NCBI GenBank assembly: GCA_043816165.1
Contig: JBDRIE010000025.1
Span: forward strand, 2,680 to 66,679
Length of the DNA: 64,000 bases
DNA from: Nitrospirota bacterium
GTDB taxonomy: Bacteria > Patescibacteriota > Gracilibacteria > UBA1369 > LOWO2-01-FULL-3
Direction of reading: 5' to 3'
The notes below the pieces were generated by a model. That model was not told the DNA's origin and made no database searches. It was given only the letters and a program-made list of their open reading frames with translations. The translations under genes were made by a program, and so were the position numbers. Shown here piece after piece: positions 14,483-16,876 of the stretch (position 1 is its first letter; every line of letters begins with the position of its first letter).

Positions 14483-16876
14483 TTATTTTTTGGTTCCATC
14501 TTGGAAAGCTTTTAGCAATGCTGCTTCGCTATTCTCGTAACCATTTTTCAGAACTTTAGCATATACAGTAGCACCTAGCACTTCGTTTTTTAGAGTTGCT
14601 AATGTTCTGGCGCTCTTTGGGGTTGGGATATTGTCAGCGAGTGTTCTAAGTCCCGTATCAATTTTCGCTTTGTCTGTTGTGCCTTTTAATATAGTTACTT
14701 GCTGATTCATTTGAGTAGTTTGGCTTGCGTTTAACGTTACTCCACCTACTTTTGTAGGTGTAGTGGTTCCTGTGGTTGTGGCAGATGGTGCAGAATAACC
14801 TCTAACCCTACTGTGATCCAATAGCGCTGTTTTAGCCGCTTCCCTCTCTTTACCTGAAGTTTTAGTCATGGCTTCCATTTTTGTGTGTATATCTCCGTAT
14901 TTGCTATCTCTCATTTGTGTGTAAAGCTTTAAGTCTCTTCTTTTCAATGTCACCATTGCTGATTGTAAGTCCGATGCTGACATATTTTGATTTCTGGCAT
15001 TTTTCAACCAACTTAACACCTTTTCAGGTGAATCCATATCCCTAGATGCCATATCGCTTGAAGAAACTCTTTTTACTCCTGTAAGTCGTTCTGCTAATAG
15101 ACCAGAATTTTTTGGCCTTCCGGTAAGTGCACCGAAAGCTTCAAGCATTTGAGAACCAGTGTATGTGTTAGTAGTGTCATCATCAGTTCCCGGTAAATCG
15201 ATTTTGAAAATAGGAGCATGTTTGAGCGGTAGAGTTCCAACCCATTTTCCGGCACTTGCCAGACTTCCTTTCATCCAATCTGTAACCGGTGCGGCGATCG
15301 ATTTGCTCGCCGCCGTGAATACTCCGAGCCAGATTACAGCTATTGTTCCGACACCTACTAATAAATCTTGGAGAGTTGTTAGCCCAACCACCGGAATTCC
15401 CTGTGTGGCTGTGAAACTGATTTGTTCTCCTCCATATAGGCTATTTATTCCTTGTAATGCCTTTAACATGATCCATCCGATAGAAAGGGAAAGTCCAATT
15501 CCGAGTGGAGCGATTGCGTTTTGGACAAATGTGTTTGTTACCTCTCCGAAACTACTAAAATTTTCTTTGACTGCGGGTATTACCATTGCCAGTAACAGGA
15601 CCGGCGACAGTGCTATGGCAAGCCACATCACCACCAAACGCCCGAGAAGCACTACGAACAGGGCTATGAAGGAAGCAACAAATAATAAGTACATAATTAA
15701 TGACAGTGCAGTATTGATGAATAATTTATCAATAGTAAGGCTGTTGACATCTATTTCTTTATATAAAACTATTTTGCTCAAGCCAATTGCCATTGCCAGA
15801 GCCGCGTTTCTGGAATTCCATCTTTTCATGAAAAGTTCACCTCGTGCAGTGAATTTCATCGTGGTCTTGGTCGTGGTCTTGGTCTTATCGTTTGGATCTA
15901 CAGTTGTTACTGTAGTTGTTTCGCACAATATACTTTTTATCTTTTCGTCGTATTCTGCAACCCACGCGTCAAGCTGTACAGCTGTGAGCTTATCTCCTGC
16001 TAATTTTCCAATTTGTTCTACTGTTGCTGATGGATCTATTTCCAACTTATACTTTTTTGCCTGGTCTTTAAAAATTTCCAATGATTTATCTTTTATAAAT
16101 TTATCTTTATCAATTACGGCATTATAGTCGATCCCTTCTGTTGATCTGCAGGCTTTTTGTATTAATTCCTGATCGTTTGGGTTATTTGGGTCCAAGGCTA
16201 TTCCTTGACCCACTTGATTTGGCAGGGCAAAGATGGCGGATGTCAGTACATTTATTCCATCCAAGAAAACTTTTATTCCGAGGAAGGAGAAGTTCACTAC
16301 TATTATTCCAATAATTATTTTTGGGAGAATCGCTTTTATCGAATAGTTGCTGTTTTCGTCACCAATTCCAAGAACGTTGTATAGGGCAATAGCTACCAAA
16401 GCTATTACGAAAAGTATATTTACGATATTTCTTATCGGTATCCATATTTCTCGCAATCGCTCTTCCATTCCGTTTCCGAAAAGCAAACTGTTGTCCATTA
16501 ATCCCCCAATCATCACGAGTACAGGCCAGAGGGCTCTATTTAGAATGTCCTGGATCTTTATCAAGAATTTCATTATATTCAGTATTCCTTCATCGGTTTT
16601 TGCTGCTGTTGTTGCTTTTTTACAAAGAGTTTTATCTGCTGTATCAACAGCATACCCTCCTGTGGGACATACTGTTTCTCCCCCTGTCATTTTACATTCT
16701 GGTTGAGTGTCAGCTGGGAACTTACATGCTGGTGTAGTCGCTGCATATGCAGTATTTTCGTGTTCATTTACAATATTATCACCCATAAATGTAGGGGCAA
16801 TTATCGATACTGTTAATGAAATCAGTAGTCCCAGTAATATTCTTTTACCCCATTTTTTCATTCTTTTTGTTTTCAT
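14483..16876 (-). CDS. polytopic membrane protein (797 aa), orphan operon gene 4
   Basis: Signal-peptide-like N-terminus, 4-Cys segment (ACKF..ECKM..VCPT..LCKK), about 8-10 hydrophobic helices split by a roughly 150-aa loop, and a roughly 250-aa hydrophilic tail. Confidence 0.8.
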   Translation of the reverse strand: MKTKRMKKWGKRILLGLLISLTVSIIAPTFMGDNIVNEHENTAYAATTPACKFPADTQPECKMTGGETVCPTGGYAVDTADKTLCKKATTAAKTDEGILNIMKFLIKIQDILNRALWPVLVMIGGLMDNSLLFGNGMEERLREIWIPIRNIVNILFVIALVAIALYNVLGIGDENSNYSIKAILPKIIIGIIVVNFSFLGIKVFLDGINVLTSAIFALPNQVGQGIALDPNNPNDQELIQKACRSTEGIDYNAVIDKDKFIKDKSLEIFKDQAKKYKLEIDPSATVEQIGKLAGDKLTAVQLDAWVAEYDEKIKSILCETTTVTTVDPNDKTKTTTKTTMKFTARGELFMKRWNSRNAALAMAIGLSKIVLYKEIDVNSLTIDKLFINTALSLIMYLLFVASFIALFVVLLGRLVVMWLAIALSPVLLLAMVIPAVKENFSSFGEVTNTFVQNAIAPLGIGLSLSIGWIMLKALQGINSLYGGEQISFTATQGIPVVGLTTLQDLLVGVGTIAVIWLGVFTAASKSIAAPVTDWMKGSLASAGKWVGTLPLKHAPIFKIDLPGTDDDTTNTYTGSQMLEAFGALTGRPKNSGLLAERLTGVKRVSSSDMASRDMDSPEKVLSWLKNARNQNMSASDLQSAMVTLKRRDLKLYTQMRDSKYGDIHTKMEAMTKTSGKEREAAKTALLDHSRVRGYSAPSATTTGTTTPTKVGGVTLNASQTTQMNQQVTILKGTTDKAKIDTGLRTLADNIPTPKSARTLATLKNEVLGATVYAKVLKNGYENSEAALLKAFQDGTKK

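Follow-up and report, generated by a model that had tools for sequence, protein, structure and literature searches.

The locus described here raises the question of whether a large membrane protein without a recognized family could be the missing platform subunit of a secretion machine. The window, the whole 64,000-nucleotide stretch that was analyzed (contig JBDRIE010000025.1 of assembly GCA_043816165.1), comes from a member of the Patescibacteria class that includes Peregrinibacteria and Gracilibacteria, and its minus strand carries at 14483-16876 a gene for a 797-aa polytopic protein. A preliminary description of the sequence likened the layout of this protein to that of VirB6/TrbL, a component of type IV secretion systems (T4SSs). 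This lead was right, and it reaches beyond topology to a remote homology that is recovered through an intermediate profile. We consider, with a probability of about 0.68, that the 797-aa protein is the missing and very divergent extended VirB6 of a Patescibacteria-type chromosomal T4SS, the genes of which are dispersed in this class. The system would be of the chromosomal, relaxase-less, monoderm type that is typical of Patescibacteria, and VirB6 would act in it as the polytopic subunit of the membrane platform.

Ultra-small Patescibacteria depend on a host, and few systems other than the T4SS have been shown to be indispensable for this way of life. Ca. Southlakia epibionticum ML1, the one Patescibacterium tested in this respect, required its T4SS genes, virB6 among them, to grow on its host (Wang et al., 2023, cited in PMC12102498). 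The only phylum-wide survey reported VirB6 as "absent" from the class Gracilibacteria, "suggesting extreme sequence divergence," and found the VirB3 and TrsD homologues of the class mostly away from virB4 (PMC12102498). The extra-sensitive profiles of that survey were drawn from genes near virB4, in a window of 20 coding sequences on either side (PMC12102498), and therefore a VirB6 encoded elsewhere may have escaped it. The protein presented here is a concrete VirB6 candidate for the class in which the survey found none.

The open reading frame (ORF) is real and intact, without internal stop, as the preliminary description had it. A chance ORF can be dismissed: with clustering at 50%, its core is matched by 777 representatives at E≤1e-30 and by 14,675 at E≤1e-3, and 61 homologues share 38 invariant core positions. 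All homologues are annotated as "hypothetical"; they belong to Peregrinibacteria, Peribacteria, Gracilibacteria, and unclassified Patescibacteria. The genome (1.07 Mb in 49 contigs, 96% complete) uses the standard genetic code, as the frequent occurrence of TGA as a stop shows.

The evidence for homology starts from A2, a core-only alignment of residues 96-560 with 66 homologues (67 sequences) from which the low-complexity tail was removed. In an hmmsearch of 401 Patescibacteria genomes, the A2 profile found matching ORFs in 282, so that about 70% of the genomes yield VirB6-like proteins with it. In the class of the window, the match spans the full profile in every genome of the sample (25/25, its own included). 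Outside this class the match (E down to 1e-24) extends over profile positions of about 45-120 and is mostly followed by a second colinear block at about 270-360, and the ORFs concerned encode polytopic proteins of 600-1500 aa.

The genomic position of these ORFs is informative. VirB4 was located via PF19044 in 29 of the A2-matched genomes. In other classes the A2 match lies 3.8-7.9 kb upstream of virB4 and on the same strand in 13 of the 16 genomes for which both coordinates were listed, the remaining ones being at 9.2 kb (one genome) and about 22 kb (two genomes). In five loci of other classes (L117-L121) the order is A2-matched protein, small hydrophobic protein, TrsD-like protein (230-310 aa), and VirB4, the VirB4 of L117 being placed by family search only, without a resolved ORF. 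The small protein was PrgI in each of the three loci scanned (41.9-49.9 bits, cut-off 27). The A2-matched proteins of these loci have 700-960 aa and 7-10 hydrophobic segments, and they are duplicated in some.

These other-class proteins form a bridge to canonical VirB6. One of them (864 aa, from L117) exceeds the Pfam TrbL cut-off (31.0 versus 25.9 bits) over residues 410-557, and its two A2 blocks (residues 347-413 and 446-500) overlap or adjoin that match; in two other bridging proteins the TrbL match is sub-threshold. In hhalign, A2 matched the bridging family at 99.8% (E 7.8e-29, 230 columns), and the bridging family in turn matched a TrwI/VirB6 family alignment built from R388 TrwI at 89.1% (E 2.3e-6, 84 columns) and Tn916 Orf15 at 67.7% (E 4.9e-5, 55 columns). 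A merged profile of A2 and the bridge matched the TrwI family at 68.2% (E 4.7e-5, 83 columns). As controls, 68 unrelated polytopic proteins from the same genome gave 2.3% or less; with the TrwI alignment reversed, the bridging family gave 9.6% (E 0.0034) and the merged profile 6.9% (E 0.0053).

Two blocks of the 797-aa protein carry the similarity. Block 1 (residues 104-223, 16208-16567, minus strand) was delimited by invariant columns and by the alignment with other classes; it is predicted to form a helix hairpin and to correspond to the N-terminal half of the TrbL/VirB6-like core. Its motif W145-R149-N150-N153 ... N195-F196-S197-F198 belongs to a set shared with other-class proteins (W..IRN.VN, Y.IK..LP, and VNFS, at about 104-223). 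Block 2 (residues 376-560, 15197-15751, minus strand) contains three hydrophobic helices, the invariant residues R413, W418, S424, and P425, and, at 383-468, the motif R..V.W...ALSP ... P..K, which aligns to TrwI 139-221 through the merged profile. It also overlaps the region that corresponds to the Pfam TrbL match of the bridging protein. Judged by these profile comparisons, the 797-aa family is remotely homologous to TrbL/VirB6, through an intermediate.

If the protein is a VirB6, the rest of a T4SS should be considered. The preliminary description saw no T4SS parts nearby; this holds for the window, in which no VirB4/VirD4-type ATPase is encoded, but not for the genome, where such ATPases were found, all on other contigs. 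The only VirB4 of the genome (775 aa; P-loop_TraG 86.9 bits, AAA_10 46.5 bits) is encoded between gyrA and gyrB on contig C7 (7462-9789). A VirB3-like PrgI (147 aa, 52.7-53.5 bits) is encoded at C39:699-1142, in a T4SS locus (C39:1-1142) that adjoins lepA. Directly after PrgI follows a TrsD-like gene (232 or more aa) that extends past the contig end; its product matches that of the gene between PrgI and VirB4 in the five other-class loci at 99.8-100%. Four paralogous VirD4/TrwB-type coupling proteins of 739-889 aa are encoded at C37:50211-52880, C37:30916-33402, C47:2228-4765, and C27:87530-89749, two of them called via Pfam above cut-offs and the other two from shared sequence motifs. None of the four lies near virB4 or the VirB6-like gene. 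An excess of VirD4-like genes is found across the phylum, and a role of all of them in the T4SS has been doubted (PMC12102498).

The search for a second VirB6 candidate in this genome gave the 797-aa protein as the single A2 match and no TrbL_3 match. The T4SS genes are split among at least three fixed chromosomal sites in this class. The distance between A2 match and virB4 is 52-79 kb in four genomes of the class and about 150 kb, by the shorter way round, in a single-contig genome; in one further genome and in the one studied here the two are on different contigs. VirB4 itself was found in all six genomes of the class that were checked. Scattered parts together with an undetected VirB6 are the picture given for the class by the survey (PMC12102498).

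The setting of the gene is constant. It is the fourth of five minus-strand genes encoding proteins of 184, 523, 410, 797, and 1262 aa, with gaps of 10, 6, 8, and 5 nt, and the cluster begins 90 nt past rpsF-ssb-rpsR. Three distant relatives (36-44% identical) have the order LysM/M23, rpsF, (ssb), rpsR, the five genes, thrS, and recF. Because the order is kept in such distant relatives, the cluster is a fixed feature of the core genome and not a mobile element. A conjugative T4SS on a mobile element would be expected to come with a relaxase, but neither relaxase nor integrase was seen among the annotated neighbors in the loci of these relatives (L004-L006), and one bridging VirB6-like protein had no tblastn match in 72,556 plasmids.

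By analogy with the TrwI platform in the R388 structure (described in PMC12857230), the 797-aa protein would form an oligomeric platform above the VirB4 ring and would be part of the path of substrate or pilin. Its outward modules, the four-Cys segment and the central insertion detailed below, could be the part exposed at the cell surface. The tail, predicted to be cytoplasmic, might serve as a docking site for VirB4, for a coupling ATPase, or for the co-encoded 1262-aa protein. The 797-aa protein would work jointly with VirB4 in the T4SS.

Several observations weigh against this assignment, and those on genomic setting come first. Among the 83 species-level loci to which all neighbor counts refer, none (0/83) has virB4 or a type IV coupling protein (T4CP) gene within 10 kb of the 797-aa homologue; in genomes of the class these genes are 50-80 kb off or on other contigs. 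The four constant neighbors show no affinity to T4SSs, and recruitment to another task is conceivable. It may be, although we think it unlikely, that a VirB6 descendant was captured by a lineage-specific envelope machine made by the five-gene cluster and running without VirB4. The conserved order of the cluster (184, variable middle genes, 797, 1262), kept in 62-67 of the 83 loci, would suit such a machine, as would the gaps of 5-10 nt in the window, the distance from virB4 and T4CP genes, and the dissimilarity of the four partners to proteins of other-class T4SS clusters. However, the genome retains an intact VirB4, PrgI, and TrsD-like gene while no second VirB6 candidate surfaced, and a T4SS without VirB6 would be unusual, VirB6 being highly conserved among all T4SSs (PMC12857230). 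Scattered genes that serve one T4SS are also known in Rickettsia, as cited in the survey (PMC12102498), and the unassigned partners of the cluster could themselves be T4SS accessories.

The same cluster allows a wider reading, which we offer as a tentative and rather doubtful possibility: VirB6 could be the hub of a separate five-gene module next to rpsF-ssb-rpsR in the class of Peregrinibacteria and Gracilibacteria, its four partners (a protein with two transmembrane (TM) helices, a bitopic 523-aa protein, a fast-evolving 410-aa protein, and a soluble giant of 1262 aa) being new parts for secretion or cell contact. Under one option the partners would replace VirB8, VirB1, pilin, or surface components that go undetected in the class. 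Under the other, partners and VirB6 would form an apparatus that runs without VirB4. The four constant neighbors are flagged as candidate T4SS parts, either missing or new ones.

The other observations against the protein's being VirB6 of this T4SS come from direct comparisons. Pfam (at E thresholds of 0.1 and 10) and NCBIfam gave no useful match to the 797-aa protein; the sole, weak NCBIfam match was to the prenyltransferase MqnP (16.6 bits versus a cut-off of 420). TrbL_3 (PF19590) had no match in the genome of the window, even at E≤10. Faint precomputed PF19590 flags on six relatives were not reproduced by hmmscan, three of these relatives having been re-scanned at E≤10, and they were not used as evidence. 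Searches against PDB sequence profiles with the whole and the core alignments found nothing useful, the matches of the whole alignment falling on the low-complexity tail. Compared directly by hhalign, A2 gave 0.2% with TrwI, 0.4% with PrgH, and 0.6% with Orf15 (E 0.1-0.26).

Structural models gave a similar outcome. The whole-chain AlphaFold2 (AF2) model has a predicted local distance difference test score (pLDDT) of 78.9, and the core-only model has a pLDDT of 87.9 and a predicted template-modelling score of 0.84. A structural search had been proposed in the preliminary description; with Foldseek against PDB, the whole chain found nothing significant and the core model found nothing at E≤0.001. 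Yet among the top 21 PDB chains for the core model, five belong to stalk entries of R388 VirB5/VirB6, and these have the best probabilities of the list (0.25-0.51). These matches are below threshold (E 1.0-2.7, target-normalised template-modelling score 0.28-0.40). Three of the chains are VirB6, because their 260-272 modelled residues exceed the 226-aa VirB5. In BFVD, the top match to the full-length model is annotated TrbL/VirB6, again below significance (E 0.15). The fold evidence is consistent with VirB6, although weak and no proof. Since the direct profile and fold matches fail, the link to canonical VirB6 hangs on one intermediate group, at 89% rather than above 95% and over 84 columns.

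These failures are what would be expected of a new membrane-channel family that resembles VirB6 in gross topology only, the profile links being artefacts of hydrophobic composition. The preliminary description kept this as a fallback and named the lack of similarity to any secretion-channel family as a ground for giving up its lead; direct searches indeed show no such similarity, but the intermediate profile does. The fallback is unsupported, because the core profile matches VirB6-like proteins (99.8%) that in turn match TrwI/VirB6 (89%). Specific polar and aromatic motifs carry the link (E 8e-29), beyond hydrophobicity, and the controls stayed low, unrelated polytopic proteins reaching ≤2.3% and the reversed alignment 9.6%. 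Moreover, the matched proteins are encoded beside PrgI and VirB4, and one is above the Pfam TrbL threshold. A resemblance of topology alone is therefore disfavoured, and we judge it quite improbable. An ordinary solute transporter or permease, for which the polytopic layout and the weak MqnP match might speak, is likewise disfavoured and hardly credible, since no transporter family was matched by sequence, profile, or fold (a clear match to one being the other finding that the preliminary description said would count against its lead), the homologues are genes of T4SS clusters, and two Cys-stabilised outward modules with a 237-aa helical tail are atypical of transporters.

The segments outside the two conserved blocks show how the candidate VirB6 is built. 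The protein opens with a basic n-region (7 Lys or Arg within 12 residues) and a hydrophobic helix, 13-31 by hydropathy and 2-31 in the AF2 model (residues 1-31, 16784-16876, minus strand), which may be either a signal peptide or an anchor. A conserved AYA motif lies about 14 residues past the hydrophobic core, and a helix that stays uncleaved as an anchor is therefore as likely as a cleaved signal peptide. Residues 46-95 (16592-16741, minus strand) form a small segment with four Cys and, in the AF2 model, three short beta strands (60-62, 75-77, and 84-87); judging from its Cys, it is probably extracytoplasmic. All four Cys motifs are exactly as first described: ACKF (C51), ECKM (C61), VCPT (C70), and LCKK (C85).

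The three TM helices that had been proposed ahead of the central loop correspond to three long AF2 helices (96-128, 135-168, and 180-222), but only two segments (151-169 and 187-205) reach a strict hydropathy threshold. The hydrophilic loop of roughly 150 aa was found at about 223-375. It corresponds to a class-specific insertion of about 150 aa (residues 224-375, 15752-16207, minus strand), which is not present in other-class homologues in the hhalign alignment, is modelled as helices with a beta hairpin (AF2 pLDDT 88-97), has the invariant C243 and C318, and is predicted to be extracytoplasmic. After it come three to four hydrophobic helices (382-432, 443-482, and 499-524, plus an amphipathic one at 529-553), and hence the four to six given earlier were a slight over-count. 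The 237-aa tail (residues 561-797 plus stop, 14483-15196, minus strand) is Cys-free, K/R-rich (35 Lys+Arg) and, as had been noted, hydrophilic and T/S/K-rich, and it is predicted from its Cys and charge counts to be cytoplasmic. Its sequence is poorly conserved and without Pfam or fold match; the AF2 prediction is of a folded, helical domain, not a disordered one (block pLDDT mostly 86-96).

The distribution of Cys across the 61 homologues bears on the orientation of these segments. Cys come almost only in even numbers, and just two places hold them, the N-terminal segment and the central insertion. In the former, 43/61 homologues have four Cys and 14/61 have none; in the latter, 59/61 have exactly two. 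The hydrophobic blocks are almost Cys-free, and the tail lacks Cys in 60/61. This pattern argues that the N-terminal segment and the insertion are outside and disulfide-bonded, and that the tail is cytoplasmic. Two outward segments require an even number of crossings between them and an odd number after the insertion. The Lys+Arg content of the later loops fits this topology (3.05 inside, 0.26 outside, and 4.2 inside); around the first hairpin it does not discriminate. It thus appears that the 797-aa protein is N-out and C-in, with about five crossings and a large outward central loop. For A. tumefaciens VirB6, too, an N-out, C-in arrangement with the central loop facing outward has been reported.

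Comparison with known systems places the protein close to the VirB6-like proteins of other Patescibacteria classes, which have the same two-block hydrophobic core and a similar size (700-960 aa). Their T4SSs are, like the 797-aa gene, chromosomal and vertically inherited, with no relaxase nearby. Two differences stand out. The other-class genes adjoin PrgI, TrsD-like, and VirB4 genes, whereas the gene of the window is on a separate contig from all three. The other-class proteins begin with a long N-terminal domain and lack the central insertion, whereas the 797-aa protein has a short four-Cys N-terminus and the two-Cys insertion. Two family members (P0082 and P0093) of 1257-1328 aa, in which the core begins near residue 520-545, carry an additional N-terminal domain of about 500 aa, like the other-class VirB6-like proteins.

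With R388 TrwI/VirB6 (PDB 7O3V, 8RT9, and 8RTD) and Pfam TrbL (PF04610), the protein shares the alignment of block 2 (68% with the merged profile). TrwI is much smaller (342 versus 797 aa), and its gene belongs to a compact VirB2-B11 operon on a conjugative plasmid of a diderm, whereas the gene of the window is chromosomal and stands apart. Monoderm T4SSs are generally without VirB5, VirB7, VirB9, VirB10, and VirB11 (PMC12857230). Extended VirB6 proteins (Tn916 Orf15; MPF_FA, 700-900 aa) likewise combine at least five hydrophobic helices with large hydrophilic central or C-terminal domains (PMC12857230). The protein described here has the corresponding features, namely a length of 797 aa, the 150-aa central insertion, and the 237-aa C-terminal helical domain. 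However, Orf15 is encoded directly after its VirB4 (Orf16), unlike the gene of the window, the 797-aa family has no direct match to Orf15 or PrgH (0.6% and 0.4%), and the added domains of the 797-aa protein match nothing known. The VirB6 paralogues of Rickettsiales are also extended VirB6 proteins, and Rickettsia T4SS genes are scattered in the genome yet make one machine, according to work cited in PMC12102498.

The remaining genes of the cluster are conserved to different degrees. The first (19706-20260, minus strand) encodes the 184-aa protein, with a two-helix hairpin at 50-88, and is upstream of the 797-aa gene in 67/83 loci. Its family combines the hairpin with a conserved C-terminal domain, has the invariant residues W37, W51, G104, F120, Y124, and E166, and shows weak, sporadic matches to DUF6232 (4/42 members) and DUF5673 (2/42). 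An identity as VirB3/TcpD was rejected: the NCBIfam TcpD_dom match (E 0.004, 17 bits versus a cut-off of 24) was inconsistent among 26 relatives, the model also fires in 13/14 control genomes, and the PrgI of the genome is the one on C39, not the 184-aa gene. A VirB2-like pilin was rejected as well, with TrbC, VirB2, or PrgI matches in 0/42 family members and at most 3.3% in hhalign of the family against TrwL and pilin-array genes.

The second gene (18124-19695, minus strand) encodes the 523-aa protein, with one hydrophobic helix at 301-319. It was detected by tblastn in 31/83 loci, and one round of profile search among the ORFs of the loci gave 55 matching ORFs. The third (16885-18117, minus strand) encodes the 410-aa protein, which is fast-evolving and Gly/Ala/Lys-rich and is recognisable in just two to three loci; in relatives its slot is occupied by a gene of similar size. 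The fifth (10689-14477, minus strand) encodes the soluble 1262-aa protein, which has no Pfam match, and is downstream of the 797-aa gene in 62/83 loci. The 523-, 410-, and 1262-aa proteins were compared with every gene of the five other-class T4SS clusters, and the 523-aa family with the prototype parts PrgL, PrgD, Orf13, and VirB8, with nothing credible in either case; the top score of these comparisons (52.6%) spans 9 columns and the remainder are ≤6.9%. A scan of the cluster for promoters and terminators found no more sites than in shuffled sequence.

Upstream of the cluster, the conserved anchor rpsF-ssb-rpsR (20351-21744, minus strand) was identified by Pfam and NCBIfam, and rpsF/rpsR are adjacent in 56-59/83 loci. 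Divergent from rpsF is a gene with LysM-LysM-Peptidase_M23 architecture (22089-23309, plus strand; Pfam M23 89 bits, LysM 79 bits), which holds the same position in L004, L005, and L006. LysM/M23-containing VirB1-like hydrolases have been listed in Patescibacteria (PMC12102498). One speculative possibility is that this gene encodes a VirB1-type wall hydrolase opening the wall for the product of the cluster.

Other loci offered a few side observations. On contig C7 (4655-14341), the VirB4 gene is followed by a gene for an 849-aa, very acidic single-TM protein with an (EP/KP) repeat, which had no match among the T4SS-cluster proteins of the five other-class loci. In L120 (2456-4475, minus strand), five tandem genes for proteins of 96-152 aa with 2-5 hydrophobic segments each lie immediately upstream of the VirB6-like gene and resemble the array of VirB2-like pilins that has been described in Patescibacteria; the window has no array of this kind. 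L005 has an additional gene for an 890-aa protein (16719-19391) between the homologue of the 1262-aa gene and thrS, which was rejected as a missing ATPase for want of a Walker A motif, a Pfam match, or a homologue in the genome of the window. Finally, an 18-kb contig labelled "Nitrospirota bacterium" (L007, JAUVQE010000018.1) encodes a homologue of 59% identity within the full synteny from rpsF to the 1262-aa gene, and is probably a Peregrinibacteria sequence binned into the wrong genome.

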